Shown one piece after another: positions 7,629 to 63,978 of a stretch of 64,000 bases of DNA; position 1 is the stretch's first letter, and every line of letters begins with the position of its first letter. This DNA comes from Bacteroidales bacterium. Its GTDB lineage: Bacteria; Bacteroidota; Bacteroidia; Bacteroidales; JAADJA01. The stretch covers positions 13,817 to 77,816 of the forward strand of contig JAWKKL010000002.1 in assembly GCA_041393275.1 (NCBI GenBank). The letters run 5' to 3'. Below the pieces are notes generated by a model. It did not search any database. It was not told where the DNA came from and saw only the letters and a program-made list of their open reading frames with translations. Position numbers and translations under genes: made by a program.

Positions 7629-7662
7629 GAATTTCGTATTCTTTATTCTATAGTATTATATA

Positions 7663-10368: not shown

Positions 10369-10387
10369 ATTGAATAATGTTAATCAG

Positions 10388-17600: not shown

Positions 17601-18146
17601 AACTTTCAACCAGGGTGGCCGCTCTTCATTCCAGCCGTTTGCTCCCATTTTAAAATTGGGCAGATACCTGTATTCAACAAATGAAAATCCGAACCAGCCA
17701 TCAGCGAGGCTATTTTGCAAACCGGCCACACCTTCTGGCCAAAACTGAATTGTGGCCCATCCGGGCTCGTGAAAATCTCCTTCCCACCAAACATATTCAA
17801 TTCCATTCAGGCAATCAATGTACACAGAGGAAGGAGTACCAAGTAGGGGGTCATTTTCCAATGACTTATTCATCCATTTTGCAAAATTATTTTCAATAAT
17901 AAATAAATTCAATTCCACACTCTGAATGATTGCTTCAACAGGTATGGCTGAAATATTGAACCTGGCCCATGCCACCTCCGCATCCTCCGATTTTATATGT
18001 ATCAGACTGTTATCAGTAAAAATAGTCCCATTGGTCGCTCCTGTATTATAATTTCCTGTATCAGGAAAACAATAAACCAAGGCCTGGCTAAATACTATGG
18101 AAAAACTAAAAAGATTTAAAACAAATATTAAAATTTGGATTTTCAT
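14653..18146 (-). CDS. Giant secreted modular surface protein, paralog 1 (choice-of-anchor-J-like modules + FN3-like modules + non-T9SS C-terminal domain); two close frame breaks near the 3' end
   Basis: ORF 15057..18146 has a signal peptide (MKIQILIFVLNLFSFSIVFSQA). Through a short middle frame (FLLNSGNIVGLDGTLVPNI, about 15075-15020) it continues into ORF 14653..15054 (FDATILQNLFVVIFHRDHLAVISN...DGNLDGQVDNKD). The N-terminal ~290 aa are colinear with those of the 18335..23704 product. Confidence 0.75.
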
Positions 18147-29977: not shown

Positions 29978-30069
29978 GGCAAAGAATTAATTACTAACCC
30001 TTTGTTTACCAACTGGCGCGAGTCTGAGATAAAGCCTCAGGGCTAATTTTGCGCCCTAAAATATAACGC

Positions 30070-31574: not shown

Positions 31575-31620
31575 TAAAATAAGATAAATGTTGTTATCAA
31601 TCATGATATTTTGAATTAGC

Positions 31621-33965
31621 ATGAGAAACTCCCTGGATTTTTATTTTTTCATTTTACTGTCACAGTTGGCATTGTCAGTTCAGGCGCAACATGGCCAGCC
31701 AGCAACCAGGTCAGAGATCATTGAAGAAAAACCACATGGAAAGATTTTTATATCCATTTTGTAAAAAAAGGAGAAACGTTATTTACCATTGCCCGTGCAT
31801 ATGGAATTACGGTGGATGACATATTTAAAACTAACCTCCATCGGCAACGGAAGGTATTTATGAAGGAAAAATTTTAAAATACCTGTTAAAAGTAAAAACC
31901 GGCCAGGCTGTTGAAAAGAAGGAAAAAAATGAAAAAGATTTTTTCACCATATCGTGCAAAAAACAGGAAACCTTGTATGGCATTTCAAAGAAATATGGAA
32001 TTGGTGAGCAATTGACAAAATTAAAGCCATAAATCCGGGGTTAAGTGATAATATTAGTGGAAGGGCTAACTTTGAAAATTCCGGTTCGGCAGGAATATGA
32101 AGATTTATTGCGCCCGAATGGGATGGCTTAAACAAACAACATACTGTAAATAAAAAGGTGAAACACTTTATGGTATAGCCCGCCAGTACAATGTTACTAT
32201 TGGTGAAATAAAATGTAAACCCGGACTATCTGATAATCTTAATGTCGGTGAAAAGGTCGCTATTCCTAACCAGGAAACAGGAATGGACAGGAGGGGTAAC
32301 GGCAATTGCCATTGATGAAGATGGAAATATTGTTGAATTGCCCAAACAGAAAAAACATACAGTTGTCAAAGGCGAAACCTTATACAGTATAGCCCGCGAT
32401 AATGCCACCAGTGTTGATAGCCTGAAAAAATACAACCCCTGGTTAAGCTCGTACCTGAGCGTCGGGCAGGTAATTATCTTACCTCCATTCCAAAATACAA
32501 ATGAATATATTGTTCACAAACCTGACGCAAAAAAATCGCTTGAGGAAATCGCCAATCTTTATGACGTGGATTACAACAAGGTTGCTGAATTAAATCCACA
32601 TATTGCAAAAAGCCAGTAAGCCGTGGCTTAACACAACAAAACATTACCTGTTGAAATAAAGGATGATGTTATCGAATCTGAAAATTCAATCCCCGAAGAA
32701 AAATAACGGTATTGGGTTGCGAAGATCAGGAAACCAATCATTTGGAAACCGCAATATTACTTAATGCTTCCTCTTTTTCCTTGAACAGCTCGATAGCATC
32801 AATGCAAAAGAGAAAGTGGATTTTGGCACCCTTTACCAAACTCTCCTCTTTCGTTTCTTTCGATTTTTATGGAGGTTTTAAATTGGCTGTTGATTCAATG
32901 CAAGCACTGGGGATGAACATTAATTTGTTTGTATACGATGTGGATAACGACCCGGAAAAGACCACACATGTACTTAATTCATATCCGAACTCGGATCAAT
33001 GGACTTAATTGTCGGGCCGCTTTATCAGAATATTGAACAAATGGCACGCATTTTGCAAAAGAGTATCAAATACCAATCATTAATCCGCTTTCAAACCGAG
33101 AAGAAGTCATTTATGGAAACCCTTATGTTTTTAAATTAATCCCTTCCGAAAGCCATCAGGTTGAAATTTTAACCGATTACATCCTTCGCACATACCCTGA
33201 TAAAAACATTGTTTTTAATAAAGTACAATAAGTATAAATACCAAAACGAAATTTCATTTATCCGAAACACACTAAATAGTGAAAGGCCCGTAAAGGTAAA
33301 TATATCAAATAAAAATATTTGTATCATTAGCAAGGCAAAATAATAAATCAACCCTGCTAACTGAAAATAAATTGCTGAATGCACGACTTAAATGAAACCA
33401 AACGACAGTGCATCGTTTACCAATCTTGTTCAATAGAAGTAATTTATGTTTCCGACAGCGTAAACGGATTAAAAATGAGTTTATCGAAAGTGAGGGATAA
33501 TGTGTGTCATTGCCATTAGCGATATTGTTTTTTCTGAAAGAAGTGTTATCGAAGCTGAATAAACTTAGCCTTCAACATAACATTGTCCTTTTTGGGCTTC
33601 CGTTGTGGAATGATTACATCGATTTGGAAACCTCTCAATTGCTAAACCTGAATTTTCACTTCTTTTCGACATCTCTGGTTAATTATAAAAGTGAAAAGAC
33701 AAAACACTGGATAAAAAAATTCAGGGAAAATTATAAAACCGAACCTTCGGTCAATAATTATGCGTTTGATGGGTTTGATGCCGGATGGTATTTTCTGAAC
33801 GGATTATACAGGTTTGGCCCTGATTTTATCAACTGCCTTGAATATATGGATTTCCGGCCCATGCATACCAGGTACAAATTTATTCAGTCGCAAGGCAATG
33901 GCTACCAAAACAGTTTTTGGAACATAGGGAAGTACGAATCATATAATGTAATTAAAGTAAATTGA
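31621..33965 (+). pseudogene. Multi-LysM protein with a C-terminal periplasmic-binding-protein (type 1)-like domain, multiply frame-broken
   Basis: Signal peptide (MRNSLDFYFFILLSQLALSVQA) followed by repeated LysM units (VKKGETLFTIARAYGITVDDI, TLYGISKKYGI, TLYGIARQYNVTIGEI, HTVVKGETLYSIARDNATSVDSLKKYNPWL, SLEEIANLYDVDYNKVAELNP). The PBP-like tail is intact in 33504..33965. Confidence 0.7.
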
Positions 33966-34181
33966 TAGGTGTTGGTTGTCATATATACCGAATTTACCAA
34001 AGCCTAAAATTTAATAAATGCAATACGTCGCCTATCCAATGATCGTTGAATTACAGCGCAATCCTTGTTTTCTATGGCACTATTACAAATCCCAAAAGGC
34101 AATAATAAGCTTTATTAAAATCAACACAAATTTGTATAGAAATCTATTTCCTTTATATTTGCGCAAAATTCTTTGAAATAT

Positions 34182-35150
34182 ATGCTCAGCAGAAGGCACC
34201 TCAGAATTAAAGCACTCCAGCTATTGTATGCTTTTATTCAATCGAATAACGACAATCTTGTAACGGGAGAGAAAGACTTATTGAAAAGCCTCAATAAAAT
34301 CTATGAACTGTTTATATACCAGTTTTCGCTCCTGATTGAGATAACTGAATTTGCATATAAAAGGTCAGAAGAAAACAAGCAGAAATATTTTCCAACCGAA
34401 GAAGACCTTCATCCAAATACCCGCTTTATTAATAACCGCATTATCAAAATGATTTCCAACAATCGCGATTACCAGCGCTATTATGATGTTTACAAAATAA
34501 ACTGGGCCGAAGAAGAAGAAATGATCAGGAAATTATACAAAGGGATCATTGCAAGCGAAGAATACAAAGCATACATGGATGCCAAAATTGCAACACTAAA
34601 TGCTGACAAGGAAATTTTGATCAAAATCATAAAAAAACACCTTTCCCGCTCGGAGCTGTTGCAATCGTTTTACGAAGAAAAAAACATTCACTGGTCCGAT
34701 GACTTTCATACGGCAAACCTTCTGCTTATAAAAGCAATCAAAGGACTAAAAGAGGGTTTTGGTGAAAATGTGAAAAACTACCTACACTGCTTAAAAACGA
34801 TTTGTCGATGATCCCGATGAAGACATTGAATTCAAAAATCTTATTCAGGAAACGATAATCAACAACCAGCAATATCTTGATTTAATTGAAAATGCTGTGC
34901 GCAAAACTGGGAAATGGAACGCATTGCTATTATAGATAATATCCTTGCGTTGAAAATGGCCATTGTCGAGCTGCTTTGAATTTCCATCAGTCCTCGACTG
35001 TTAGCATTGAACGAATACATCGAACTGGCAAAGCTCTACAGTACACCCGCAAGTAAAATATTCGTTAACGGTATTCTTGATAAACCCATTGTAGATTTAA
35101 AAGCTGACAATAAAATAAAAAAATTGGCCGGCCTGCCTGAAAGTTATTAA
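34182..35150 (+). pseudogene. nusB: Transcription antitermination factor NusB (long Bacteroidota form), 3' third frame-broken
   Basis: MLSRRHLRIKALQLLYAF is intact to about 34790. Shifted frames then read DDPDEDIEFKNLIQETI...ERIAIIDNILALKMAIVELL...INEYIELAKLYSTPASKIFVNGILDK. The exact stop is uncertain. Confidence 0.8.
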
Positions 35151-35243
35151 GTTTTGTCTATCCAATTGCTGAATATTAAATTCTTTTTGCAATTTTCAAT
35201 TTTAATTAGATTTTTAGAATTTTGCACGTAGTAATAAAAAAAG

Positions 35244-35903
35244 ATGATGAAAGCTAAGGTATATTTTTATGGATTAACCGTTGTTTTTTTAAGTTTTATG
35301 TTTGTCCAATGCGACCCGCCTCTAAAAAAGACGGTAAACGGAACAAGCGAAATCAGAACAAACAAAGCCAGCCATTCCCGAGAAAAGCAAACAAAGGGAA
35401 GAACCGGTAATCACCAAAGATGACAGGGGGAATATCATTGAACGGCAGTCGTATTCGTACAAAAAATCGGATAACAGCATTCGATCGAAAGAAAGTTATT
35501 ATTATGAATACGATGATAGCAACAATCTGATAAAAGATGTTAAAGAATCATATGACCTGATGGCTCTCGAAATATAAAAATATTAATTATCATACATATA
35601 ATAAAAAAATGAATTGGTCAAAAACCATTTTTGAATCGTACGACGACCACAATAACTCAGCGAAAAGCCCACAACGAATTTATTTATAATGAAAAGGGGC
35701 ATAAAATAAAAGAACTAAACTTTTATGAAAATGGCTCATTACGTGGAGAGATCATCCTCGACCCTGATGTAAACGGTGCTCTTCGTTCGGAAGAATTCAT
35801 CAATTATAATCCTGACGGATCTAAAAAAGACCACAAAAAATATTATTACAACCAATACGGCCTTGAGAAAACGGTGGATTTGATGGAGAAAGGAAAAGGG
35901 TAA
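35244..35903 (+). pseudogene. Small lipoprotein with Tyr/Asn-rich repeats, frame-broken, function unknown
   Basis: MMKAKVYFYGLTVVFLSFMFVQC lipobox, with fragments in three frames ending in ORF 35631..35903. Confidence 0.45.
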
Positions 35904-36054
35904 TGGTCCTCCTTCACTTATCTCCTTCGCAAAAAGCATCAGAGTTGGAGCAGGCTTCGGAGGACAAGTGGGAATAGATAAACTTTGCGTTCTTTGCGAA
36001 AACCTTATGCGGCCATTGTGTGAAATTCATATCTTTAATGTTTATATCTAAAAT

Positions 36055-36591
36055 ATGCCCGAGTCAAATTCAATTTTTGTTCAAATTGCGCGGCTTACCA
36101 TAAAGCACCATCTTGAACATGGCCATCTAAACGACCTGAAATTTCAGGATGCACCGGAAATCCTTACCGGTGAAAGAAGGGGTTGTTTTGTTTCGCTTCA
36201 TTTAAAGGACGGTTCGCTGCGGGGCTGTATTGGCACTATTGAACCTGTTGAAAAAAACCTGTTGAATGAAATTAAACGGAATGCCTTATCGGCTGCCTTC
36301 CGCGATTCACGTTTTGAACCACTCCGCGAAGATGAATTTGGAGACCTGGAAATTTCGGTTGACGTATTATCCGTACCTGAACAAATTGAAAGCCCCAACG
36401 ACCTTGACCCGGCTATTTACGGCGTGATCGTTTCTGATGGCTCTTACCACCGGGCTGTTTTGCTTCCCTTCATTGAAGGTATTGATACGGTTGAAAAACA
36501 ATTAAACGTTGTAAAGCGGAAAGCCGGACTGGAACGTAAAAGTTGGGACGAATTGACGATATTCCGGTTTACAACGAAGAGGTACCATTAG
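36055..36591 (+). CDS. AMMECR1 domain protein (AmmeMemoRadiSam system protein A family)
   Basis: 178 aa with GCFVSLH...GSLRGCIGT and FRDSRF motifs. Confidence 0.85.
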   Translation: MPESNSIFVQIARLTIKHHLEHGHLNDLKFQDAPEILTGERRGCFVSLHLKDGSLRGCIGTIEPVEKNLLNEIKRNALSAAFRDSRFEPLREDEFGDLEISVDVLSVPEQIESPNDLDPAIYGVIVSDGSYHRAVLLPFIEGIDTVEKQLNVVKRKAGLERKSWDELTIFRFTTKRYH

Positions 36592-38962: not shown

Positions 38963-39816
38963 AGATACTGGAAACTTACCGGGATGCCCTGCAAAGTATT
39001 CCCGGCTTTATCCCTACGGATAAAAAAGTCCAGGCAATCAATACTTTGCTTGAGGTCAATTTCGATATCCTTGATGTTGGGAGTTTCGTTTCTGAAAAAT
39101 TTGTTCCCCAGTTTAAGGATATGGATGCGGTACTGAATCAAATCCAGAAAGGGAACTCAATAACTGAAATATTTGTTTTGACAGCTACACCAGAAGGTGC
39201 AAATAAAGCAGCACAACATAAGATCATTGATATTATAGGTTATCCCTTTTCTACCTCTCCCACTTTTCTAAACAAGAATATAAACAGAAATTTTGATGAA
39301 GCATGGGTTGATATTGTAAAGATTCAGGATATTTGTCAAAAATACAATAAAGACCTAATGCTTTACCTCGCTATGGCTTTTGGCAATCCGTATGGCGATC
39401 CGGTGGAAATTAAGGATATTTTTTCCTGGGTTCAAAAATTTTCTTCAATTGGTATCACTTATATCAGCCTGTCTGATATTATTGGTGTTGCCTCTCCCCA
39501 ATTTATTGCCGATGCATATCAGACTTTTACTACAAATTTCCCTGATATTGAATTTGGGCTTCATTTACATACCAAACCAAATGACTGGGAACAAAAAATC
39601 GAAGCCGCCTACACGAACGGATGCACTATTTTCGACGGGGTGATCTCTGGCCTGGGTGGATGCCCGATGACGGGTTACGAAATGCTTGGGAATTTGCCAA
39701 CCGCAAAACTGGTTGATTTTTTCCTGAAAAAAGGGATCCCTTTGCAACCTGGAAAGGACAAATTTGAAAAAGCCCTCACAATGTCAAACGATTATATTCA
39801 GCCTGGTAAGCAATAA
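38935..39816 (+). CDS. HMG-CoA-lyase-like (HMGL/DRE-TIM) protein
   Basis: From the ATG at 38935: MVQKNHRKVKILETYRDALQS.., LHLHTKPN, and DGVISGLGGCP. The upstream part of tracked ORF 38518.. overlaps the membrane gene in another frame. Confidence 0.75.
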   Translation: MVQKNHRKVKILETYRDALQSIPGFIPTDKKVQAINTLLEVNFDILDVGSFVSEKFVPQFKDMDAVLNQIQKGNSITEIFVLTATPEGANKAAQHKIIDIIGYPFSTSPTFLNKNINRNFDEAWVDIVKIQDICQKYNKDLMLYLAMAFGNPYGDPVEIKDIFSWVQKFSSIGITYISLSDIIGVASPQFIADAYQTFTTNFPDIEFGLHLHTKPNDWEQKIEAAYTNGCTIFDGVISGLGGCPMTGYEMLGNLPTAKLVDFFLKKGIPLQPGKDKFEKALTMSNDYIQPGKQ

Positions 39817-40181
39817 TTGGCAACTGGGTTTTTAATCCTAAAAAAACCATTAGACTTTTTAGGGGTAAATTTATATCCATTTTAAACAATGCAAAAACTT
39901 ATTGTTTTTCAGCAACTTACCCCCTCCCCCGACAAACACCCAAGCCAACTATCTTCAGAAAATAAGTTTGGATATCCCTGCGTATTACCTTTATATGAAA
40001 CGTAGGGTAAAAATTGCTCAATGGATTAAAGGATCAGTAACGCATGTTGTTCCCATTTAATTTGGATGATGGATATATTAATTTTACCAAAGGCTTCCCT
40101 TATGTAAAATAGTAATAATTCCATTTTTGAATAAGTGTAATTAATATAAGAAAATAAAAGCTAACCTGAAATAGCAAAGAG

Positions 40182-41602
40182 ATGAAAAAAATTTTAATTG
40201 TTATAATAGCCATTTTTTTTACAGGAAACAGCCCGCCAAATACCAAAAGCCAATACACCATTCCGGTGGGCAATGTACCGCCTGCACATCGGATATTGGA
40301 CAATGACATGGGCCTTGATGTTATAACCGGTCATAGTGTTGGATGGGGATATACCAATAAATCTATATCGGTTATGGAAAATATAAACAATGGTGTGTTT
40401 TTTTAGTAACAGATACATCCAAGTCTTTGTGGGAACCAAAAGAATATATTTACCATACAGGTAAACAACGACACATTTCCCGACCTGGCGGTTTTTTATT
40501 CTTGATTTCCACCTCTGCTACACAAAGGTATATAAGGGTATTTTATAATGAACAGGGTGAGTTTAACAATTTTAGCGATTTCAGCCTCGAAAGCGACGCC
40601 ACATTTTCAGGGATCAATCACGGTAAAGTTAATGATGATGATTATGACGATATTGTGGTCATATCAAACAATGGGCATTTTTGGGGTATCCTTTACAATG
40701 ATGGGAATAGTGGGTTTACTTCGCCAGAATATTTTAATCTTGACGGACCTCCATCTGATATTGCCTGTAGTGATTTAAATAAAGACGGACGTGACGATGT
40801 TGTTGTTGTTGGAAACAAGTTAAACGTATACTACAGTTATGACACAAGCTTGTAAAGGATCTCAATTGGGTTCCAGCAATTTTTAGTTCAATTGGCAGAC
40901 ATGGATATGGATAATGACATGGACCTGGTTTGTTTAAGTGGCTATTTTTCAACAACAATTGCCACCATCATTGAAAACATTGGGGATGGCAATTTCTACA
41001 CACATGAGCCTTTCCCATACAATCCCTACTGCTGGCGATTTCTTGTATCTGACCTTAACAACGATTCATTGCCTGACATCATTTCATCAAGTGTCAACAA
41101 TGGTGTATATATTTTGTACAATGAAGGAAATTACCAGCTTTCCGGCCCAGTTTTTATACCGGTGCCATTGGTAGGTTACGATTTTGTGAATGCCCATTGT
41201 GCCGACCTCGACAACAATGGGTTCAATGATCTAATTATAACACAAACCAATGCCCATTTCATCAACTTGTTATTTAATGACGGCAATGGCAACTTTGTTG
41301 AAGATCCTCTCACCTATTCTAAAGAAAGTATACATGAAAGAGAAATTTATCTGAATTGTAGTCCAAATCCATTTTCAGGTACAACAAAAATTTGGTACAA
41401 GCTTGAAAGTGAATCATCTGTTCAATTGAATGTTTACAATTTTACCGGACAATTGATCAAATCATATGATGAAGGGTCAAAAATGAAAGGAAACCATTTT
41501 GTTGAATTTGATGCAACAGGGCTAAAGAGTGGGATTTATTTCTATTCGATCGGTATAAATGGACAAATATCGGATTCAAAGAAGATGACTATTTTAAAGT
41601 AG
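40182..41602 (+). pseudogene. FG-GAP/VCBS-repeat protein with T9SS C-terminal sorting domain, frame-broken
   Basis: Has a signal peptide and repeated Ca-loop motifs (DLNKDGRDDVVVVG, DMDNDMDLV, DLNNDSLPDII, DLDNNGFNDLII). The C-terminus is SPNPFSGTTKIWY...GIYFYSI. Frame breaks lie near 40400-40520 and 40855-40890. Confidence 0.7.
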
Positions 41603-41654
41603 CCCCAAATTAATTTATGTAAATCATTATTTAGGTTTTAAATTTCTAAAAAGC

Positions 41655-41684
41655 TGTCCCTGTAATACGGGGCATTTTTTATTT
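41655..41684 (+). terminator. Candidate intrinsic terminator
   Basis: Stem UGUCCC / GGGGCA (one G-U pair) with an 8-nt loop, followed by UUUUUUAUUU. Confidence 0.55.
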
Positions 41685-42018
41685 CAATGGCCACTTTATT
41701 GCATTTATTTGCCATGATTGACATTGAGGTAAAACTGGAATATTGGGAAATTTCAAACAATTATTTTTATCACTCTTACAATATTCTATCATTCCAGAAT
41801 GGGAAGGCTGAAGTAAGCTCGGTTTATAAATCATTTACCCTATTGCATTTATCATAATTAGGTTAATTTATTTCGCTAAAATAGTGGTCTATTTATAAAA
41901 CATCTACAAAACTACATTATTCAATCCTTCCAATTTTACTGTATTTACTTAATTAACAGTCCATAGTTTATAATCCTTCTAAATTTCTAATCCTCATTGC
42001 TAGTCAAATAAATAAATA

Positions 42019-42026
42019 TATTTTTG
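42019..42026 (+). promoter_or_regulatory. Candidate -7 promoter box (TATTTTTG) of the hox operon
   Basis: TAnnTTTG match 52 nt upstream of the hoxF ATG, with a TTG 17 nt further upstream. Confidence 0.4.
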
Positions 42027-42077: not shown

Positions 42078-43861
42078 ATGAGTTCACAAGTCCAAAGTAT
42101 TGTTGAGAAATACAGTAAAGATGCAACCCGTCTTATGGATATCCTTATCGATATAAAAGATGAAAATGGGTGTGTTGGCAGTGACGAAATTGCCGAAATA
42201 GCTGATCAACTGAATATTTCGCATGTTGATGTTGAACAAACACTTTCATTTTATCACTTTTTCAATAAAAAATCACGCGGGAAATACACCATCTATTTAA
42301 ACGATAGCCTTGTGGCCAACATGATGGGCAGGGATGAAATTGCAGATGCCTTTGAAAAAGCCACAAAAACAAAATTTGGTTCGGTATCGAATGATGGAAT
42401 GTTTGGCCTCTTCAACACATCATGTATTGGTATGAACGACCAGGAGCCGGCAGCCATCATAAATGGGGTTGTATTTCCTAAAATTACGACCTACAGGGTA
42501 AGGGAACTGATCAAAGAGTTCAGGACAGGCAAAACAGCCCAGGATATGATCAACAGTTTTGGCGGTGGCCAAAATCAATCCGACCTCATCCGTTCCATGG
42601 TAACAAACAATCTTAACCGCAGGGGAAAAGTTATTTTCGCCGACTACCATGCCGGGGATATGTTGAAAAAATTGCCTTCGATGAAACCTGTGGAAGTCAT
42701 CGAAGAAGTGAAAAACTCAAACCTCCGTGGCCGCGGTGGTGCAGGTTTCCCAACCGGATTAAAATGGGATTTTTGCACAAAGTCTCCAGGCAACGAAAGG
42801 TATTTGCTTTGCAATGCAGATGAAGGAGAACCCGGGACATTTAAAGACAGGGTTATCCTCACAGAAATTCCTTACTTGTTGTTTGAAGGAATGATCGCCG
42901 CCGGTTATGCCATCAGCGCAAAAGAAGGAATATTATACCTCCGAATGGAATATAAATACCTGGAAAACACCTTGATGCCGTAATAGATAACTTCCAGGAA
43001 AACGGTTGGCTTGGTAAAATGCCTGTGGAATTGAAGGATTCAATTATGATATAAGAATTCAGTTTGAGCCGGTGCTTTATGTATGCGGTGAAGAATCGGC
43101 CCTGATTGAATCATATGAGGGAAAACGTGGTGAACCAAGAAACCGCCCACCTTTTCCTGTTCAGGTTGGATACCTCGACAAACCAACTGTGGAGTTAATA
43201 ATGTTGAAACTTTACCGACAATGTTAAAAATTTGATGAATGGTGCCGAATGGTATAACCGTCGGGGACCAAAAGAAACATCAGGTACAAAACTATTAAGC
43301 ATTCTCAGGAGATGAAATTTCCGGGTGTTTTTGAAATCGAATGGGGCATGACGGTTCGTGGAATGTCGAATGTCGTGGAGCCTCCATGACACAAAAGCGG
43401 TTCAAATAGGAGGCCCATCAGGACGTTTAATTGCAGAAAATGAATTCGGACTTTGAAATTTGTTATGAAGACCTGCCAACCGGTGGAGCCATGATCGTTT
43501 TGACAAATCTCGCAACATCCTTGATATCGTTAAAAACTTCACCGACTTTTTCATTGATGAATTTTGTGGTTCATGTGCACTTTGCCGCTATTCGACTGTT
43601 ATCTTACGTAATAAATACAGAAGATACTGAATGGGCGTAGTAAGCGATATTGAAGAAATGATCCATTGCGGAAAACAAATGAAAAATGCCAACCGTTGCG
43701 GCTTGGACAAACGGCTGCAAACCCCATTCTTACATATTGAAAATTTCCAGGGCGACTATGAAGCCAAAATTGAAAAAGGAAAAGTGTTTGATACAAAATT
43801 CAACCTTGATGAAGCCATTCAGGAATCATGTCGTGTTGTCGGCAGGTTCCCGCAGGCATAA
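42078..43861 (+). pseudogene. hoxF: NAD(H)-binding diaphorase subunit HoxF (NuoE-like + NuoF-like fusion); 3' half multiply frame-broken
   Basis: Intact to 42983 ([30 protein letters not shown]). Stitched frames then read [52 protein letters not shown], and NRCGL...FPQA with the stop at 43859-43861. Confidence 0.85.
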
Positions 43862-43989: not shown

Positions 43990-44694
43990 ATGAGTGAAAA
44001 AGTAAAATTTTCAATTGACGGTAAACAATGTACAGCAGACAAAGGCATTAACCTGGTTGAGGCCGCCAAAGAAAATGGCGTCTACATCCCTACCCTATGC
44101 CACCTTGAAGGCATTAAAGCTGCCGGCTCGTGCAGGATCTGTAACGTTAAAATTAACGGCAGGTTCATGACGGCTTGTACAACAAATGTTGCCGATGGCA
44201 TGGTCATCGAAAACGTAACACCCGAAATTCAGGAATTAAGAAAAATTATTGTTGAAACGCTTTTCGTATCTGGCAACCATTATTGCCCGGCCTGCGAAAA
44301 AAGCGGGAACTGTGAACTCCAGGCATTAGGATACAAATACCAAATGCTTGTTCCACGCTTCCCCTATGAATTTGAAGAAAAAGAAGTAGACGCCAAAGCA
44401 ACCAAATTTTATATCGACAGGAATAGGTGCATTCTTTGCAAACGTTGTGTTAGAAGTATAAAAACCAAAGACGGCAAAAGTATATTTGCCATTCTTGGAA
44501 GAGGCCATAAAGCCATGATCAATATTGACCACGAACTGGCTAATAATATGACCGACGACGAAGCGGCAACATACAATGACACATGCCCCGTGGGAAGCAT
44601 CCTGAGAAAAGAGAGAGGCTATGTCGATCCAATAGGAAGCCGGAAGTACGACAAACCTATTGGAAGCGAAATTGAACAAAGTGTAACTAACTAA
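43990..44694 (+). CDS. hoxU: Iron-sulfur diaphorase subunit HoxU (NuoG N-terminal-like)
   Basis: From MSEKVKFSIDGK: a 2Fe-2S pattern CHLEGIKAAGSCRICNV...TAC, then HYCPACEKSGNC and CILCKRCVRS...CPVG. Confidence 0.88.
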   Translation: MSEKVKFSIDGKQCTADKGINLVEAAKENGVYIPTLCHLEGIKAAGSCRICNVKINGRFMTACTTNVADGMVIENVTPEIQELRKIIVETLFVSGNHYCPACEKSGNCELQALGYKYQMLVPRFPYEFEEKEVDAKATKFYIDRNRCILCKRCVRSIKTKDGKSIFAILGRGHKAMINIDHELANNMTDDEAATYNDTCPVGSILRKERGYVDPIGSRKYDKPIGSEIEQSVTN

Positions 44695-44703
44695 TAGGAG
44701 GAA

Positions 44704-45255
44704 ATAACAACAGTAAACCAATTGTAGCTACCACATCTTTAGCCGGTTGAAGCTGGATGTCATATGTCAATCCTTGACATTGACGAAAGAATACTGGAAC
44801 TTATTGAACTGGTCGATTTTAATAAATCTCCCATTGATGATATCAAAGAATTTACCACGATGTGTGATATAGGTATCATTGAAGGAGGTCGTGCAACAGC
44901 GAAAACGTTCATGTTTTGAAAGATTTCAGGAAAAATTGTAACGGATTTCCCTTGGAGAATGTGCCATCATGGGTGACTCGGCCATGCGAAATAATATTCC
45001 TATCAGGGAGTGTTTGAGGAAGGTATTTGAACGGGCCATCCTACAAAAACGCCAATCCGGGCTGTAATTACTCCCAACAATGAGGAACTACCACCATTCT
45101 CGATAAAGTATATCCCTGTCATGAAGTTGTAAAAATTCGACTATTACCTCCCGGGCTGCCCACCGCGCCGATTTGAATTTGAATGCACTGGTTGCTCTGG
45201 TAACAGGTTATTTGAAGAAATGAAACTTCCCTACGAAGTTGTTAAATTTGATTAA
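44704..45255 (+). pseudogene. hoxY: [NiFe] hydrogenase small subunit HoxY, multiply frame-broken; start not resolved
   Basis: Stitched frames read KPIVATTSLAGC..GCHMSILDIDERILELIELVDFNKSPIDDIKEF...IIEGG, YLPGCPP and KLPYEVVKFD, with the stop at 45253-45255. No intact ATG was seen. Confidence 0.75.
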
Positions 45256-45275
45256 CTCTGGTAAAGCTTAAGAAA

Positions 45276-46727
45276 ATGGAAAAAAAGATAACAATAGAAC
45301 CTGTAACCCGAGTGGAAGGCCACGGTAAGGTTACAATTCAGATAGACAAAGAAGGCAACGTATCACAAAGCCGCCTGCATATCGTTGAGTTCAGGGGATT
45401 TGAGCGTTTTGTACAAGGCCGCCCCTACTGGGAAGCCCCCGTTTTGGTACAACGCCTTTGCGGAATTTGCCCAGTTAGCCATCACCTGGCTGCAGCTAAA
45501 GCACTTGATGTAATTGTTGGTGCGGGAACGGGAGATGGTCTTACACCCACCGGTGAAAAAATGAGAAGGCTGATGCACTACGGACAAATGTTCCAGTCAC
45601 ATGCCCTGCACTTCTTCCACCTTGTTTCTCCTGATCTTCTTTTTGGTGTGGATGGTGACCCGACAATCAGAAATGTTATTGGTGTTGCTAAAAAACATCC
45701 TGATCTTGCAGTGCAAGGTGTAATGATGCGTAAATTCGGACAGGAAGTTATTAAAGCAACTGCCGGTAAAAAAATTCACGGCACGGGCGCTATCCCTGGT
45801 GGAATTAATAAACATCTGACCCAGGCAGAAAAAGATAGTTTCCTGAACGGACCCGACCCATTGAACATTGATAAAATGATTTCATTGGCCCAGGATGCAG
45901 TTAATTTCCTGAAAGCTTATCATAAAGAAAATAAAGCATTCATTGACGGATTTGCCGCTTTCCCTTCAAGTCATTTAAGCCTTGTTAGGAAAGATGGTGC
46001 GCTTGACCTTTATCATGGTGTATTACGGGCCATTGATAAAGACGGAAACAAAATCCTTCACGATGTTGATTACCAGAACTACCTGGATTATATAAACGAA
46101 GAAGTGAGGGACTGGAGTTATATGAAATTCCCCTTCCTTACCGAATATGGTAAAAAAGAGGGTTGGTACCGGGTTGGGCCATTGGCCAGGTTAAATACCT
46201 GCGATTTTATTCCAAGTCCGATGGCACAAAAAGAATTTGAAGAATTCCGGGCTTATACCAATGGGAAACCAAACCACATGTCGATGCATATGCATTGGGC
46301 CCGTTTGATTGAGTTGCTTCACTCTGCTGAGATGATGAAAGAATTGTTGAATGATCCTGATCTGATGAAGGGAGAATTGATAACTAAAGGTGAAAAACGC
46401 AGTGAAGGTGTTGGTTTAATTGAAGCCCCGCGTGGTACGCTGTTTCATCATTACAGGATAAATGAACATGATCAGATTGCTATGGCCAACCTTATTGTAA
46501 GTACTACAAACAATAATGAACCTATGAATGTTGCTGTAAATCATGCTGCAAAACAATTCATGAATGGCCAGGAAAAAATCACCGAAGGTATGATGAATGC
46601 TGTTGAAGTGGCAATCAGGGCATACGATCCTTGTTTAAGTTGTGCAACCCACGCTGTTGGACAAATGCCGCTTGAAATGGTGTTGATCGATCAATACAAT
46701 AAAGTAATCGACCGGAAAAGAAGGTAA
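45276..46727 (+). CDS. hoxH: [NiFe] hydrogenase large subunit HoxH (group 3d-like)
   Basis: Intact 483 aa with RVEGHG, the N-terminal Ni-Fe ligand motif RLCGICPVSH, and the C-terminal DPCLSCATH. Confidence 0.93.
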   Translation: MEKKITIEPVTRVEGHGKVTIQIDKEGNVSQSRLHIVEFRGFERFVQGRPYWEAPVLVQRLCGICPVSHHLAAAKALDVIVGAGTGDGLTPTGEKMRRLMHYGQMFQSHALHFFHLVSPDLLFGVDGDPTIRNVIGVAKKHPDLAVQGVMMRKFGQEVIKATAGKKIHGTGAIPGGINKHLTQAEKDSFLNGPDPLNIDKMISLAQDAVNFLKAYHKENKAFIDGFAAFPSSHLSLVRKDGALDLYHGVLRAIDKDGNKILHDVDYQNYLDYINEEVRDWSYMKFPFLTEYGKKEGWYRVGPLARLNTCDFIPSPMAQKEFEEFRAYTNGKPNHMSMHMHWARLIELLHSAEMMKELLNDPDLMKGELITKGEKRSEGVGLIEAPRGTLFHHYRINEHDQIAMANLIVSTTNNNEPMNVAVNHAAKQFMNGQEKITEGMMNAVEVAIRAYDPCLSCATHAVGQMPLEMVLIDQYNKVIDRKRR

Positions 46728-46733
46728 ACATTC

Positions 46734-47222
46734 GTGTCAAGTTATAAAATTCTAATCTATGGATATGGGAACCCGGGTCGCCAGGATGACGGTCTGGGAA
46801 ATTCCTTTGTTAATCTATTTGAGAAATGGATTAAAGAAGAAAACATGCATGGATTTGAATTTGACAGTAATTATCAATTAAACATAGAAGATGCAGATGC
46901 CATCGCTGGAAAAGACCTGGTAATTTTTGTGGATGCTTCCACGGAAGAAATCGAAGACTTTATACTAACACCGGTAGATGCGGACACCAATGTGGCATTT
47001 ACTTCGCATGCTGCGTCTCCTGGTTATATTGTTAGTTTATGCAAGGATATTTATAATAAAATTCCCCCAACCTATCTTTTACATATAAAAGGATACGAAT
47101 GGGCATTTAAGGAAGGGTTATCAGATAAAGCAAAAAAAAACCTTGAGCTTGCTTTTAGGCATATGAAGGATATTTGCCTGGAACCAAAAAAATTAATTGA
47201 CCGTTTCGAGAATTTCTTATAA
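46734..47222 (+). CDS. hoxW: Hydrogenase maturation endopeptidase
   Basis: 162 aa with GYGNPGRQDDGLG, a later FVDAS...H pattern, and a GTG start 7 nt after hoxH. Confidence 0.85.
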   Translation: MSSYKILIYGYGNPGRQDDGLGNSFVNLFEKWIKEENMHGFEFDSNYQLNIEDADAIAGKDLVIFVDASTEEIEDFILTPVDADTNVAFTSHAASPGYIVSLCKDIYNKIPPTYLLHIKGYEWAFKEGLSDKAKKNLELAFRHMKDICLEPKKLIDRFENFL

Positions 47223-47262
47223 AAGAAAATAATTTAATCACAATCACATAAAATTAAAAAAC

Positions 47263-48240
47263 ATGGACCTATCAACAGAATACATGGGATTAAAACTAAA
47301 AAATCCCATCATCGTGAGCAGTTCAAAACTTACAGGTGATATAAATAACATAAAAAAATGTGCTGATTTTGGTGCGGGTGCCATTGTTCTGAAGTCATTA
47401 TTTGAAGAGCAATTAATCGCCGATTCAAATGCTTTGATGGATCAGGACATGAAATATTTCTGGTTTCCTGAGGCCATCGAACATATCAACAAACATTCAA
47501 AGGAATACGGTGTTAAACAAACCCTCGAACTTATAAAAGGGGCTAAAGCATATACTGATATTCCAATTATTGCCAGTATAAATTGTGTTTCATCGCATGA
47601 ATGGCCACAATTCGCAAAACAACTTGAAGATGCCGGAGCAGATGGGATTGAACTGAACATTGCTATTTTCCCTTTTGATAAATACATGGCTTGTGGCGAA
47701 ATCTGTGATCAGTATGTGGAAATTGTAAAAAAAGTTAAAGAATTCGTTACAATTCCTATTGCTGTAAAAATGGGCAACTATTTTACAAACCTCGTTCAAA
47801 TGACACACAGGTTAGAAGAAGCCGGAGCGAATGGACTTGTACTTTTTAACCGCTACTACCGTCCTGATATTGACATTGAAAAAGAGGCCATTGTCAGGGA
47901 TAACATTTTAAGTGCACCACAAGAAGTAACAAAATCACTACGCTGGGTAGCATTGCTCTCACCACAATTGAATTGTGATATTGCTGCTGCTACCGGAATC
48001 CATGATTATAACGGGGTGGTGAAACAACTACTGGCAGGCGCCGAAGCCACACAAATTTGTTCTACCCTTTTTAATAATGGGCTAAGTTATATTGATACTA
48101 TTTTGTTCGATTTACAAAAATGGATGCAAAAGCATAATTATAAATCAGTTGCTGAGTTTAAAGGAAAAGTAGCAAACAAAGAAGGAAGTACTCAGAAATT
48201 TGAGCGGATGCAGTTTCTTAGAAAGAAATTTAGCCAATGA
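47263..48240 (+). CDS. Dihydroorotate-dehydrogenase-like FMN TIM-barrel protein (not a canonical PyrD)
   Basis: 325 aa starting MGLKLKNPIIVSSS, with GAGAIVLKS, ASIN and GADGIELNIAIFP. The usual ELN(L/I)SCPN or SSPN catalytic Cys/Ser position reads AIFP. It lies 40 nt after hoxW and is followed by a terminator. Confidence 0.75.
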   Translation: MDLSTEYMGLKLKNPIIVSSSKLTGDINNIKKCADFGAGAIVLKSLFEEQLIADSNALMDQDMKYFWFPEAIEHINKHSKEYGVKQTLELIKGAKAYTDIPIIASINCVSSHEWPQFAKQLEDAGADGIELNIAIFPFDKYMACGEICDQYVEIVKKVKEFVTIPIAVKMGNYFTNLVQMTHRLEEAGANGLVLFNRYYRPDIDIEKEAIVRDNILSAPQEVTKSLRWVALLSPQLNCDIAAATGIHDYNGVVKQLLAGAEATQICSTLFNNGLSYIDTILFDLQKWMQKHNYKSVAEFKGKVANKEGSTQKFERMQFLRKKFSQ

Positions 48241-48255
48241 AAAAATAGTTTGCTG

Positions 48256-48283
48256 AAACCCGGTCCAATGGCCGGGTTTTTTT
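48256..48283 (+). terminator. Intrinsic terminator closing the hox-DHOD-like unit
   Basis: AAACCCGG (48256-48263) pairs with CCGGGUUU (48272-48279), followed by a U-run ending at 48283. Confidence 0.75.
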
Positions 48284-48334
48284 GCCCAAATCTGGCCCAA
48301 CACCCGCTATGCACTTTCAATATGCTAAGGGGTT

Positions 48335-60090: not shown

Positions 60091-61158
60091 ATGAAGAAAC
60101 ATAATTTTTATGCCGGCCCATCAATTTTACCGGAATATACTATTGAAAACACTGCAAAAGCAATTAAAGACTTCGCCGGAACCGGTTTGAGCATCATGGA
60201 AGTTTCGCACCGAAGCAAAGAATTCATCGCTGTCATGGACGAAGCTATCGCACTTTTTAAAGAATTGCTGAACATCCCCGAAGGGTATTCGGTCATCTTC
60301 CTGGGTGGCGGGGCAAGTACTCAATTTGCCATGATCCCTTATAATTTATTGAATAAGAAAGCAGCTTACCTAAACACCGGAACCTGGGCAAAAAAAGCGA
60401 TTAAAGAGGCAAAATTATTTGGTGAAGTGGATGTGGTTGGATCGTCGGAAGAACAGCAGTACAGGTTCATTCCGAAAGGTTATACCATCCCTAAAGAGGC
60501 TGATTATTTCCATATTACTACCAACAATACCATTTATGGGACACAAATCCACAAGGATATTGATTGCCCCGTGCCACTGGTAGCCGACATGTCATCAGAC
60601 ATTTTCAGCCGGCCGGTTGATATTTCAAAATATGCGCTTATATATGGCGGTGCACAAAAAAACCTGGCTCCTGCAGGTGTTACTTTTGTTATTGTAAAAA
60701 ATGACATATTGGGCAAAGTTGATCGCATTATTCCTACTATGTTCAACTATCAAACGCATATTGAAAAAGAATCCATGTTTAATACACCTCCAGTACTGCC
60801 AATTTTTGCTGCGTTACAAACACTAAAATGGCTCAAAAACAATGGTGGAATTGCAGCAATGGAAAAGAAAAACATTGAAAAAGCGAAGTTGCTTTATGAT
60901 GAAATTGACCGGAACAAACTATTTGTCGGAACCGTGGCAAAAGAAGACAGATCGCTGATGAATATTTGTTTTATTATGAATCCTGAATACCAGGAACTTG
61001 AAAAGGAATTTGTTGATTTTGCTACCACTCGCGGAATGATTGGGATTAAAGGGCACAGGTCAGCCGGTGGATTCAGGGCTTCGACCTACAATGCACTGCC
61101 AAAAGAAAGTGTGGAAGCACTAATAGCGGTTATGAAGGAATTTGAATCAATGAAATAG
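60091..61158 (+). CDS. serC: Phosphoserine aminotransferase
   Basis: 355 aa starting [14 protein letters not shown], with SHRSKEF and the GGAQKN PLP-lysine region. Confidence 0.93.
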
Positions 61159-61197
61159 AAATAAGCAGGTTGTAAACCATCTAAAATTATTTTACCC

Positions 61198-62118
61198 ATG
61201 ACTAAAGTACTTGTTGCCACTGAAAAACCATTCGCTCCTGAAGCAGTTAATGGTATCAGAAATATTTGCGAAAAAGCAGGTTATCAATTGGTTTTACTTG
61301 AAAAATATGCCGGCCCTTCGGATTTAATCAAAGCGGTGGCGGATGCAGACGCATTGATCATTCGCAGTGATAAAGCTACCCGTGAAGTTATAGATGCTGG
61401 TAAAAAATTGAGGATCATCGTCCGTGCCGGAGCTGGATACGACAATATTGACCTGAACGCTGCCACTGAACATAAGGTAGTTGCGATGAACACCCCTGGA
61501 CAAAACTCCAATGCGGTTGCAGAACTTGCTCTGGGCATGATGGTTTTTATGGCAAGGAACAAATTCAACGGAACATCAGGAACTGAACTTCGTGGAAAAA
61601 AACTTGGCATTCACGCCTTTGGCCATGTCGGCCAGTTAGTTGGCCAAATTGCTAAAGGCTTTGGTATGGAAATATATGCCTTTGATCCGTTCATCTCCGA
61701 TGAAAAAATCAAGGACCTTGGAGCAATACCTGTTTCAAGTGTAGAGAAGTTATATTCAACTTGCCAGTATATTTCTTTGCATATTCCGGCAAATGATCAA
61801 ACCAGGAAGTCAATAAATTTTGATCTTTTATCGAAAATGCCAATCGGAGCAACCCTTGTTAACACGGCAAGGAAAGAGGTTATTGATGAAGAAGGACTGA
61901 TTTCAATGTTTGAAAAAAGAGCTGATTTTATTTACCTTTCGGATATTGCCCCCGATAATAAGGAATTAATCGAAAGAAAATTTGAAGACAGGAGTTTTTT
62001 TACACCTAAAAAAATGGGCGCTCAAACGGAAGAGGCAAACATTAATGCCGGACTTGCCGCAGCTAACCAAATTGTAAATTTCCTAAAAAATGGTGATACT
62101 ACTTTTAAAGTAAATTAA
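61198..62118 (+). CDS. serA: D-3-phosphoglycerate dehydrogenase (short form, D-2-hydroxyacid dehydrogenase family)
   Basis: 306 aa with RAGAGYDNID and NTPGQNSNAVAEL motifs, adjacent to serC. Confidence 0.85.
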   Translation: MTKVLVATEKPFAPEAVNGIRNICEKAGYQLVLLEKYAGPSDLIKAVADADALIIRSDKATREVIDAGKKLRIIVRAGAGYDNIDLNAATEHKVVAMNTPGQNSNAVAELALGMMVFMARNKFNGTSGTELRGKKLGIHAFGHVGQLVGQIAKGFGMEIYAFDPFISDEKIKDLGAIPVSSVEKLYSTCQYISLHIPANDQTRKSINFDLLSKMPIGATLVNTARKEVIDEEGLISMFEKRADFIYLSDIAPDNKELIERKFEDRSFFTPKKMGAQTEEANINAGLAAANQIVNFLKNGDTTFKVN

Positions 62119-62138
62119 ACGTATTAAAGCTTACAATC

Positions 62139-62181
62139 GAACATTCCACCGTGCATGCGGTTCCTTTTGGTTTGAATGTTC
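62139..62181 (+). terminator. Nested hairpin after serA (possible terminator)
   Basis: The outer arms are GAACATTC (62139-62146) and GAATGTTC (62174-62181). The inner hairpin ACCG UGCAUG CGGU is followed by UCCUUUU. Confidence 0.4.
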
Positions 62182-62225
62182 ACTAATTTATATCTAACTG
62201 AGGTTATTAACTTAAAGAAATTATC

Positions 62226-62723
62226 ATGGACAACGATGCTACTCAAAACGTTTCTTTTTTCAGATTTGAAGACTTAAGGGTCTACCATAAATCACTGGAT
62301 TACACTGATTGGGTTTACAATGCAGTAAAAAAATTTCCAGAAACACAACCATCAAGATTAGCCGATAAATTTATTAACTCAGCACAGGCTATTTCTTTTT
62401 ACATTGCTGAAGGTTCATCACGGAACAAAAGCCAGTTTGTTCATTATTTAAAATTGGCAAAAAGTTCTATCCGCGAATGTGTTATCCTTACTACCATTTG
62501 CGAAAAACAAAATTTATTTGATATGATTGCAATTGATGAATCGAGAAATGAATTGATGGAATTAACAAAAATGACCGGGGCATTGATAGGCTCTTTGCAA
62601 AAAACAAATGGCAGGGCAAAAAATAAACATTATCAGAAAGACAAAAATTTTGATGATTACAATTATGATGCTGATTCTGATGAGTTGATCACGGTTGACA
62701 CGACCGATTATAATAAATATTAA
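62226..62723 (+). CDS. Four-helix-bundle protein (23S rRNA intervening-sequence protein / Avd-like family) with an acidic Asn/Tyr-rich C-terminal tail
   Basis: FRFEDLRVYHKSLDY......INSAQAISFYIAEGSSR...QFVHYLKLAKSSIRE matches the family pattern. An extra ~45-aa tail follows (..KNFDDYNYDADSDELITVDTTDYNKY). Confidence 0.75.
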   Translation: MDNDATQNVSFFRFEDLRVYHKSLDYTDWVYNAVKKFPETQPSRLADKFINSAQAISFYIAEGSSRNKSQFVHYLKLAKSSIRECVILTTICEKQNLFDMIAIDESRNELMELTKMTGALIGSLQKTNGRAKNKHYQKDKNFDDYNYDADSDELITVDTTDYNKY

Positions 62724-62732
62724 AAAATTAGC

Positions 62733-63978
62733 ATGGCAATATTAAAAGCATTCAAAGGGGTAAGGCCACCTGAAAAATTGGCAAAAGATGTAGCCTCAAG
62801 GCCTTATGACGTGTTAAACTCAGAAGAAGCCCGGGAAGAGGCAAAAGGAAATGAACGTTCTCTTCTTCACATCATAAAACCTGAAATTGACCTGGATCCG
62901 GATATCGATGTACATTCTGAACAAGTCTATAATAAAGCGAGAGAAAACTTTGAACTGTTCCAGTCAAAAGGCTGGCTAAAGCAGGATGAAGATGAATATT
63001 TATACATCTACGGACAAACCATGTGGGGAAAAACCCAGTATGGTTTGGTGGGATGTGCTTCGGTTGATGACTACATGAATAACATTATTAAAAAACATGA
63101 ATTGACCCGGCCCGACAAAGAAGAAGACCGGATGAAACATGTGAGGATCAACAATGCCAACCTCGAACCTGTTTTTTTCTCCTATCCTGCTCATGCCGAG
63201 CTTGATGGAATAATTAAGGATTTTGTAAAAACAAACATTCCTGTATATGATTTCGTGGCTGATGATGGAATTGGCCATCATTTCTGGGTGATAAGGGAAA
63301 AGAACAAAATTGGAAAAATCATCGAACTTTTTGCAACCATACCTGCTACTTATGTCGCTGATGGACATCATAGAACTGCTGCTGCCGCACTGGTTGGAAA
63401 AGAAAAGCGTGATAACAACCCTAACCACACAGGAAATGAAGAATATAACTTCTTTTTGGCAGTACATTTCCCTGATGATCAATTAACAATTATTGACTAC
63501 AACCGGGTTGTGAAAGATTTAAATGGATTTTCGACAGAAGATTTTATTCATTATCTTAAGAAAGGATTTGAGGTTGAACAAAAAGGGGCTGCTATTTATA
63601 AACCTGAATCGCTGCACAATTTCAGCATGTACCTCGAAGGCCAATGGTATTCGTTGACGGCCAAAGAAGGCACCTATGACGATAACGACCCCATTGGCGT
63701 ACTGGATGTTACTATTCTTTCCAATCAGGTATTAGAACCCATTTTAGGCATTGAAGATCTTCGACGTTCGACACGGATTGATTTTGTTGGAGGAATTCGG
63801 GACTTGGCGAACTTAAAAACGGGTAGATTCAGGCGAAATGAAAGTGGCCTTTGCCCTCTATCCTGTTTCTATGAAACAATTGATTGATATTGCCGATACC
63901 GGAAATATTATGCCGCCTAAAACCACCTGGTTTGAACCCAAATTAAGAAGCGGACTGGTTATACATAAGCTTGATTAG
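62733..63978 (+). CDS. DUF1015 family protein (frame broken near the 3' end as sequenced)
   Basis: MAILKAFKGVRP...ASRPYDVL...HELTRPDKEEDR...ADGHHR. After about 63810-63830 the true frame continues VDSGEMKVAFALYPVSMKQLIDIADTGNIMPPKTTWFEPKLRSGL to TAG 63976-63978. Confidence 0.8.

Follow-up and report, generated by a model that had tools for sequence, protein, structure and literature searches.

A dihydroorotate dehydrogenase-like flavoprotein without the canonical catalytic base as the predicted terminal gene of a Bacteroidales hox hydrogenase operon

Introduction

Why would a flavoprotein of the dihydroorotate dehydrogenase (DHOD) type, without the catalytic residue of that enzyme, be encoded directly behind the genes of an NAD-linked hydrogenase? 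The question is raised by a 64,000-nucleotide (nt) stretch of a Bacteroidales bacterium (contig JAWKKL010000002.1, positions 13,817 to 77,816; hereafter "the window," numbered from its first letter), in which an intact open reading frame (ORF) at 47263..48240 on the plus strand, with an ATG start and a product of 325 aa, follows the endopeptidase gene hoxW. We call this DHOD-like gene and its product, as well as their relatives in the same family, DHODL. An initial annotation, made from the letters of the window, had seen in it an oxidoreductase binding flavin mononucleotide (FMN) that might exchange electrons with the diaphorase module of the hydrogenase. We find that the gene is the predicted last member of the hox transcription unit and that its place is kept almost throughout its own clade, and we tentatively suggest that its product is an additional flavin subunit of the hydrogenase. 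What is new here, as far as the searchable literature shows, is the conserved placement behind hoxW, by which a DHOD-like flavoprotein gene is added to a hox operon.

Results

DHODL ends the predicted hox transcription unit

The DHODL translation contains GIELNIAIFPFDKYMACGEICDQY, identical to the stretch quoted in the initial annotation. The 40-nt spacer between hoxW and DHODL (47223..47262, plus strand) is A/T-rich and carries neither a hairpin nor a promoter motif; it is unstructured, with a predicted fold of -2.4 kcal/mol and a z of +1.5. The gene is followed by an intrinsic terminator at 48255..48284 on the plus strand, made of an 11-bp GC-rich stem, a 4-nt loop and a U-run (-18.6 kcal/mol). 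The closest relative, a Bacteroidales metagenome-assembled genome (MAG) with an intact hox operon and a DHODL 90% identical to that of the window (locus L001), aligns in blastn up to 48284, the very end of the terminator, where synteny stops.

At the other end of the unit, a Bacteroidetes -7 type promoter motif, TATTTTTG, lies at 42019..42026 on the plus strand, about 52 nt 5' of hoxE, and is a candidate operon promoter as a pattern match only. The motif scan found none in 45243-48300, and the strict two-part Bacteroidetes promoter pattern has no plus-strand match within the operon. A terminator-like hairpin at 41655-41674 belongs to the gene preceding hoxE. Because the spacer is unstructured, the -7 motif lies before hoxE with none in 45243-48300, and the terminator comes only after DHODL, the predicted transcription unit runs in the order hoxEF, hoxU, hoxY, hoxH, hoxW, DHODL, with DHODL as its terminal gene. 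The initial annotation had proposed co-transcription with the hydrogenase from a short gap free of terminators and a strong terminator behind the gene, and all three points agree with this prediction. Neither Rfam nor a tRNA scan gave a match anywhere in the window.

Identity to the closest relative at the three codon positions of DHODL is 0.92/0.97/0.57, the pattern of purifying selection, and together with more than 8000 homologues this argues that DHODL is a real, selected gene.

DHODL belongs to a catalogued family with a DHOD-type barrel

By its profile scores DHODL is a member of the NCBIfam family NF005741 (PRK07565, "dihydroorotate dehydrogenase-like protein"), a catalogued family without characterised function. 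It scores 401.3 bits against a curated cut-off of 303, and the match is near full length (residues 1-320 cover positions 2-324 of the 335 in the model), so that the protein is not an orphan. Pfam DHO_dh (PF01180) matches residues 3-288 with 50 bits. The next-best NCBIfam matches, class 1B PyrD and PreA, fall far below their cut-offs: 119 bits for class 1B PyrD NF005574 (cut-off 269), 107 bits for TIGR01037 (cut-off 270) and 111 bits for PreA NF006183 (cut-off 335). Lower still are class 1A NF002702 (54 bits, cut-off 301), TIGR01036 (20 bits, cut-off 200) and the class 2 models (at most 25 bits, cut-offs of at least 200).

The AlphaFold2 model of DHODL is a (beta/alpha)8 barrel with a predicted local distance difference test score (pLDDT) of 95. 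The best Protein Data Bank (PDB) matches by sequence and by fold are domain IV of dihydropyrimidine dehydrogenase (DPD), DHOD-B and DHOD-A, with template-modelling (TM) scores of 0.65-0.71 at 19-22% identity; for 1ep1, 1dor and 5ue9, Foldseek gives a probability of 1.0 and TM scores of 0.65-0.69. The DHOD/DPD-type TIM barrel recognised from the letters is thus well founded. No NF005741 member was found among the PDB structure matches. Within the 325 aa there is no Fer4 Pfam match, and no iron-sulfur (Fe-S) or docking domain is recognisable by Pfam.

The family is very large. More than 8000 proteins match with E < 1e-10, and more than 8000 still at E < 1e-20; clustering at 50% identity gives 649 clusters at E <= 1e-30 (2373 at E <= 1e-10); at least 597 loci occur in GTDB species-representative genomes. 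Automatic naming at JGI labels its proteins "dihydroorotate dehydrogenase (fumarate)." The CDD model cd04739, DHOD_like, which we take to be this family, is annotated as keeping the FMN site and lacking the catalytic residues; since CDD presumably already describes the subgroup in this way, the missing residue is not new. No published function for NF005741/PRK07565 was found in the searchable literature.

The catalytic position is isoleucine in the window protein and lacks a conserved Cys or Ser across the family

In the HMMER profile alignments, Ile135 of DHODL falls on the catalytic cysteine of the ELNISCPN motif of DHOD-B and on C671 of DPD. The column can be pinned to Ile135 because the DPD entries (C671A, wild-type and C671S) differ solely at residue 671, reading ELNLSAPHG, ELNLSCPHG and ELNLSSPHG. 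In the profile of the family, too, the residue facing the DHOD-B cysteine is hydrophobic. Across 140 diverse family representatives, 35-54% identical to the window protein, column 135 holds I, V, Y or L and the neighbouring column Y, F, S or A. The absence of the canonical catalytic residue, as first read from the window, therefore stands up in the alignment, which has no conserved Cys or Ser there, and the missing Cys/Ser base is, to judge from these sequences, a trait of the entire NF005741 family.

Other positions of the presumed active site are strongly kept. S45, F47, E48, E49, N107, E130, N132, K169, N196, G245, G259 and R315 are all present in DHODL, and among the 140 representatives none of them falls below 93% conservation; for the presumed active-site face as a whole (S45, F47, E48, E49, N107, E130, N132, K169, N196, R197 and D202) each residue reaches at least 86%. 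By analogy with DHOD and DPD, we take N132, K169, N196, G245, G259-A260, S267 and K44 to be FMN-contacting positions, and all of these putative contacts are kept in the window protein. The near-invariant motif S45-x-F47-E48-E49 leads into a helical insert (residues 48-97, modelled as three helices) in the part where DHOD-A and DHOD-B fail to align: HMMER aligns these two from about residue 100 on and leaves the N-terminal third unaligned. In DHODs this third contains the orotate-binding Asn loop (the Asn67 region in Lactococcus lactis DHOD-A). The Hox-linked clade described below has an insertion of its own with an invariant F66-W67, and Ala or Ser in place of Tyr or Phe at position 134.

The initial annotation had also pointed to two cysteines, in MACGEIC, shortly after ELNIAIFPFD. 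These turn out to be lineage noise. Position 144 carries Cys or Ser. At position 148, Cys occurs in only 6/117 aligned members of the Hox-linked clade, and family-wide 118/140 sequences have Glu there. The "ACGE" stretch aligns with the non-catalytic "ACGQ" of DPD. With neither C144 nor C148 conserved, a redox or metal motif at this site was ruled out. Cysteines 33, 108, 238 and 266, which are conserved in the clade, seem unlikely to form an Fe-S site, since their secondary-structure positions put them on separate faces of the barrel model.

The place behind hoxW is conserved within one clade

Neighbourhoods were compared at 80 GTDB loci, supplemented by further loci and metagenome contigs. 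Wherever upstream DNA is available, each GTDB relative among the 80 with at least 50% identity is immediately preceded, in the same orientation, by hoxEF-U-Y-H-W (L003, L004 from an Anaerolineales MAG, L005, L009 and L010). Linkage is partial in L006, where hoxW meets the contig edge, and in L101. It persists at 63-64% identity in loci with very different flanks (L083/84, L085/86 and L087) and at 51% identity (L089/90), and further hox-linked loci are L001 and L095-L105. Among the metagenome loci with upstream sequence, 11/12 are hox-linked, the exception being L093. For the clade in total, hoxW immediately precedes DHODL in about 22 of the 23 loci for which upstream DNA is available, and in most of the hox-linked loci the gap between hoxW and DHODL is -4 to about 45 nt.

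The hox-linked DHODLs form one clade in a neighbour-joining tree, with 50-90% identity. The outer flanks of the hox-DHODL operons differ among loci, and the hosts are Bacteroidales plus the one Anaerolineales MAG; judged by these sequences, the clade moves with its operon between genomic positions and between phyla. Below 50% identity the picture is different: none of about 70 more distant GTDB loci adjoins hox, and L074 is the only distant locus adjoining any hydrogenase. The association with the hydrogenase anticipated by the initial annotation thus holds for the protein's own clade and does not extend to the distant loci.

Contexts in the rest of the family

Contexts were counted when recurrent, on the same strand and separated by short gaps; the contigs of the very distant representatives P0200, P0208 and P0212 are too short for context. 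Several recurrent partners are Fe-S flavoprotein complexes. DHODL is the first gene of a 13-gene Mrp-Mbx-like operon at L030 and L042 and the last gene of such an operon, 6 nt after a GltD-like gene, at L067 and L079. The order in these operons is mnhEFG-B-C-D/A, then nuoH-B-C-D-like genes, then the GltD-like subunit, and DHODL shifts its position while always lying inside the operon. An nfnA/pyrK-like gene, then a gltD/nfnB-like gene, then DHODL are found at L044, L046, L063, L065 and L081; counting all contexts, a GltD-like gene is paired with DHODL at 9/80 loci. This pairing, and the way DHODL stays inside the Mrp-Mbx-like operons, mirror the architecture of PreT/PreA and of DPD. At L074 (103-6355) DHODL comes before an FNR-like gene, a NuoE-like and a NuoF-like one, and the gene of a HydABC-type [FeFe]-hydrogenase of 595 aa; at L020 and L048 it comes before rnfBCD.

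Other recurrent contexts are of a housekeeping kind: DHODL lies beside gcvT-H-P in spirochaetes (L018, L036, L056), beside E2-E3 genes in Desulfuromonadales (L032, L076) and, at 14/80 loci, at the end of a serC-DUF1015-yggS-DHODL string in Marinilabiliales-type genomes.

Some features of these loci deserve mention in their own right. The 13-gene operon, with Mrp and NuoH/B/C/D-like genes, encodes a poorly described Mbx/Ehr-type complex in Bacteroidales with a GltD-like Fe-S flavoprotein at its end, and by eye its NuoD-like subunit has no obvious [NiFe] Cys motifs. The hydrogenase at L074 is a second, unrelated hydrogenase type beside an NF005741 member. At L069, two DHODL paralogues, 35% and 42% identical to that of the window, lie within 3 kb of each other, at 6745-7755 on the minus strand and 9998-10972 on the plus strand, so multi-copy genomes exist. 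The window itself has, at 60091-63977, serC, a serA-like 2-hydroxyacid dehydrogenase gene, a 23S-rRNA-IVP family gene and DUF1015 (with a frame change near 63887). Elsewhere, in 14 Bacteroidales genomes, yggS and a core-type DHODL paralogue come after the serC-DUF1015 string, and because of this pattern a second paralogue may lie just past the 3' end of the window; a look-up of the serA-like protein of the window, as a lead past that end, gave no record.

The hox genes and their broken reading frames

All hox genes of the window are on the plus strand. The hoxE-hoxF fusion (42078..43861) encodes a NuoE-like 2Fe-2S domain and a NuoF-like FMN/NADH domain (Pfam 2Fe-2S_thioredx and Complex1_51K). 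Beyond about 42960 the hoxF frame is interrupted time and again: tblastn with the intact protein of L001 (597 aa) matches in two frames, and the C-terminal half (42960-43861) shows 16 frameshifting gaps against L001, with codon-position identities of 0.92/0.95/0.56. Downstream, hoxU (43990..44694) is intact and encodes the diaphorase subunit with 2Fe-2S and 4Fe-4S sites (Fer2_4, NADH-G_4Fe-4S_3, Fer4_Nqo3); it is 91% identical to HoxU of L001 and reaches 186 bits, under the cut-off, with the NCBIfam HoxU model NF005745. The small-subunit gene hoxY (44710..45255) has lost its ATG start and has 12 frameshifting gaps against L001 (codon-position identities 0.94/0.92/0.60); in relatives hoxY is intact, with 181-183 aa and PF01058. 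The [NiFe] large-subunit gene hoxH (45276..46727) is intact (Pfam NiFeSe_Hases), its product is 95% identical to HoxH of L001, which matches PF27537 HoxH, and its codon-position identities are 0.95/0.98/0.61. Finally, hoxW (46734..47222), encoding the large-subunit C-terminal endopeptidase, scores 50.8 bits with TIGR00072 (cut-off 47.45).

The initial annotation was silent on the broken frames of hoxF and hoxY. Similar damage affects the essential GMP synthase gene guaA, whose GATase, ATP-PPase and GMP_synt_C pieces at 30134-31571 lie in four or more different frames, and the stretch 29977-36055 holds short ORFs only; both suggest that some parts of the window contain sequence errors of the indel type. 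In all sampled relatives with enough upstream DNA, hoxEF and hoxY are intact. Since the codon-position identities of the broken genes are in line with those of their intact neighbours, guaA is likewise chopped and the relatives are intact, the frameshifts are most probably local errors of sequence or assembly, or at most very recent events. On the same grounds, with codon positions 1 and 2 conserved, we rejected long-term decay of the hydrogenase genes into pseudogenes.

Other features of the window

Between an HMGL-like gene and hoxE, the window has about 2.2 kb (39732-41902) that are absent from L001. They encode one or more FG-GAP-repeat proteins with a C-terminal sorting domain of the type IX secretion system, split over the ORFs 40427-40855 and 40892-41602. 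A very long intact ORF of 1789 aa lies on the minus strand at 18335-23704, and a second one, of 1029 aa, at 15057-18146.

Discussion

A possible flavin subunit of the Hox hydrogenase

We consider it quite possible, though short of probable, that DHODL is a partner-dependent FMN subunit exchanging electrons with the Hox diaphorase HoxEFU, by analogy with PyrD/PyrK and PreA/PreT. DHODL would dock on the diaphorase of the NAD-linked bidirectional [NiFe]-hydrogenase HoxEFUYH, and its FMN would be reduced or oxidised via the terminal Fe-S cluster of the partner, in HoxU or HoxF. Electrons from H2 or NADH could in this manner pass into a small-molecule substrate, or from that substrate towards NAD+ or H+. 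Because there is no Cys/Ser base, plain hydride transfer at the FMN N5 is to be expected, and protonation, if any, would fall to another residue, for which E48/E49 and D139 are candidates. We infer the dependence on a partner from the lack of an NAD(P)H or Fe-S domain together with the use of partner Fe-S clusters by the nearest characterised relatives. The hox linkage, the single clade in the tree and a fold nearest to DPD and DHOD-B, which need partners, all speak for a partner subunit. Indirect support comes from other clades of the family, which lie in operons of other NAD(P)H/Fe-S flavoprotein complexes, and hoxI of Cupriavidus necator, discussed below, is a precedent for an accessory gene behind hoxW.

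Several observations weigh against this proposal. To our knowledge, no such subunit occurs in the characterised Hox or soluble hydrogenase (SH) enzymes. In the window, hoxF and hoxY have no open frames. The putative FMN contact K44 is conserved in only 99/140 sequences (71%) family-wide. L093, at 83% identity, has no hoxW in its 257 nt of upstream sequence, which could reflect a rearranged genome or a chimeric contig, and the conserved context may in part reflect vertical inheritance within Bacteroidales. Moreover, many loci of the family are of the housekeeping kind (serC-DUF1015-yggS, gcvTHP, E2/E3) or have no recurring neighbour, and these contexts fit a free-standing enzyme equally well.

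Alternative explanations

DHODL could indeed be a free-standing FMN oxidoreductase that is co-expressed with Hox, uses its own substrate and a diffusible second substrate at the same site, and takes no part in direct electron transfer; the two would share an operon since both are needed under fermentative, reduced conditions. Class 1A DHODs, which have the same fold, work partner-free with a diffusible substrate. Most family members adjoin no redox complex, their contexts are heterogeneous, and Pfam recognises no Fe-S or docking domain in DHODL. Condition-dependent regulation is suggested by Microcystis, in which the gene of a "dihydroorotate dehydrogenase-like protein," matched here by its PGAP name alone, belongs to those with the strongest over-expression at night (bioRxiv 10.1101/2024.07.07.602159). 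Against this, DHODL is still found behind hoxW after its sequence has diverged by 50% and the operon has been relocated and passed to another phylum, and in the Mrp-Mbx-like operons DHODL shifts position yet stays inside; the nearest characterised relatives, too, are partner-dependent. On balance we regard this explanation as doubtful, if still a serious one.

It is less likely again that DHODL serves Hox as an auxiliary, non-catalytic flavin protein, delivering FMN to HoxF, reactivating the enzyme reductively or scavenging O2 and reactive oxygen species. Such a role would suit a gene that directly follows the one for the maturation protease HoxW, the family-wide lack of the catalytic Cys/Ser, and the flavins and NAD(P)H sites carried by all the complexes beside family members; in C. 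necator, too, the gene after hoxW encodes an accessory subunit without catalytic function, HoxI. The strong conservation of the presumed active-site face argues instead for a defined ligand or substrate site, and there are no hyp or other maturation genes among the genes annotated at 36-64 kb. Least probable by far is a genuine dihydroorotate or dihydropyrimidine dehydrogenase of pyrimidine metabolism that lies beside hox by chance. The PF01180 match and the automatic JGI name would favour it, but the scores far below the PyrD and PreA cut-offs, the exchange of Cys/Ser for Ile135 and the missing C-terminal 2x[4Fe-4S] domain led us to reject a true DHOD or DPD identity, and the N-terminal third, modelled as a helical insert, fails to align with DHOD-A/B.

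Implications

Hox-type hydrogenases are of interest as catalysts for NAD(P)H regeneration and as the redox valves of bacteria that live by fermentation or phototrophy. If DHODL is a flavin subunit of Hox, H2 metabolism in the Bacteroidales that abound in sediments and digesters would have a new route by which electrons leave or enter. The extra subunit would also offer a first way into the function of a very large family now named just "DHOD-like" or misnamed as fumarate-dependent DHOD. The hydrogenase-linked accessory reductase, which the initial annotation could not match to any earlier description, has indeed none that we found in the searchable literature, and neither has the wider association of the family with Fe-S flavoprotein complexes.

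A broader and rather improbable extension is that NF005741 as a whole, its Hox-clade variants included, is a general plug-in FMN module with base-independent hydride chemistry, serving Hox, HydABC, NfnAB-like, Mrp-Mbx-like plus GltD-like, and Rnf complexes. Were this so, the Hox clade would represent a new six-subunit hydrogenase coupling H2 directly to the reduction of an organic acceptor. Alternatively, such a module might re-oxidise mis-reduced 1,2- or 1,6-dihydro-NAD(P) formed at low potential, so that NAD(P)H-cycling enzymes would carry with them a repair activity like that of renalase. The pairing with GltD-like genes and Mrp-Mbx-like operons suggests that the module could matter for other poorly understood energy-converting complexes.

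Comparison with known systems

DHODL shares its barrel with class 1B PyrD of the PyrD/PyrK enzyme (PDB 1ep1), with a profile alignment over residues 100-305 (E 1.5e-26) and a Foldseek TM score of about 0.65-0.69. Class 1B PyrD, itself without an NAD site, depends on the Fe-S cluster of its partner, and DHODL is likewise without an NAD(P)H-binding domain. The two differ in that the Cys of ELNISCPN is Ile in DHODL, identity is 19-22% and the N-terminal third is unalignable; moreover, PyrK/NfnA-like genes adjoin NF005741 members of other clades, whereas this locus has no pyrK-like gene. The best match in both sequence and fold is DPD domain IV/PreA, aligned from residue 1 (profile E 9e-27, Foldseek E 1e-17). 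Unlike these proteins, DHODL has neither an equivalent of Cys671 nor the C-terminal 2x[4Fe-4S] domain, and where other clades have a PreT-like (GltD-like) partner gene beside them, here there is none and the neighbouring module is HoxEFU.

The closest parallel in a hydrogenase is HoxI, a cyclic-nucleotide-binding-type protein that binds NADPH. The soluble hydrogenase of C. necator is encoded by the operon hoxFUYHWI and forms the enzyme HoxHYFUI2 (PMC3189943). Both hoxI and DHODL come directly after hoxW in the operon of an NAD-linked [NiFe]-hydrogenase, and both products are without a Complex I counterpart. The folds are unrelated, and physical association has been shown for HoxI and is a proposal for DHODL. 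Compared with the rest of NF005741, the sub-clade of the window protein (at least 50% identity) is the only part of the family found to stand behind hoxW.

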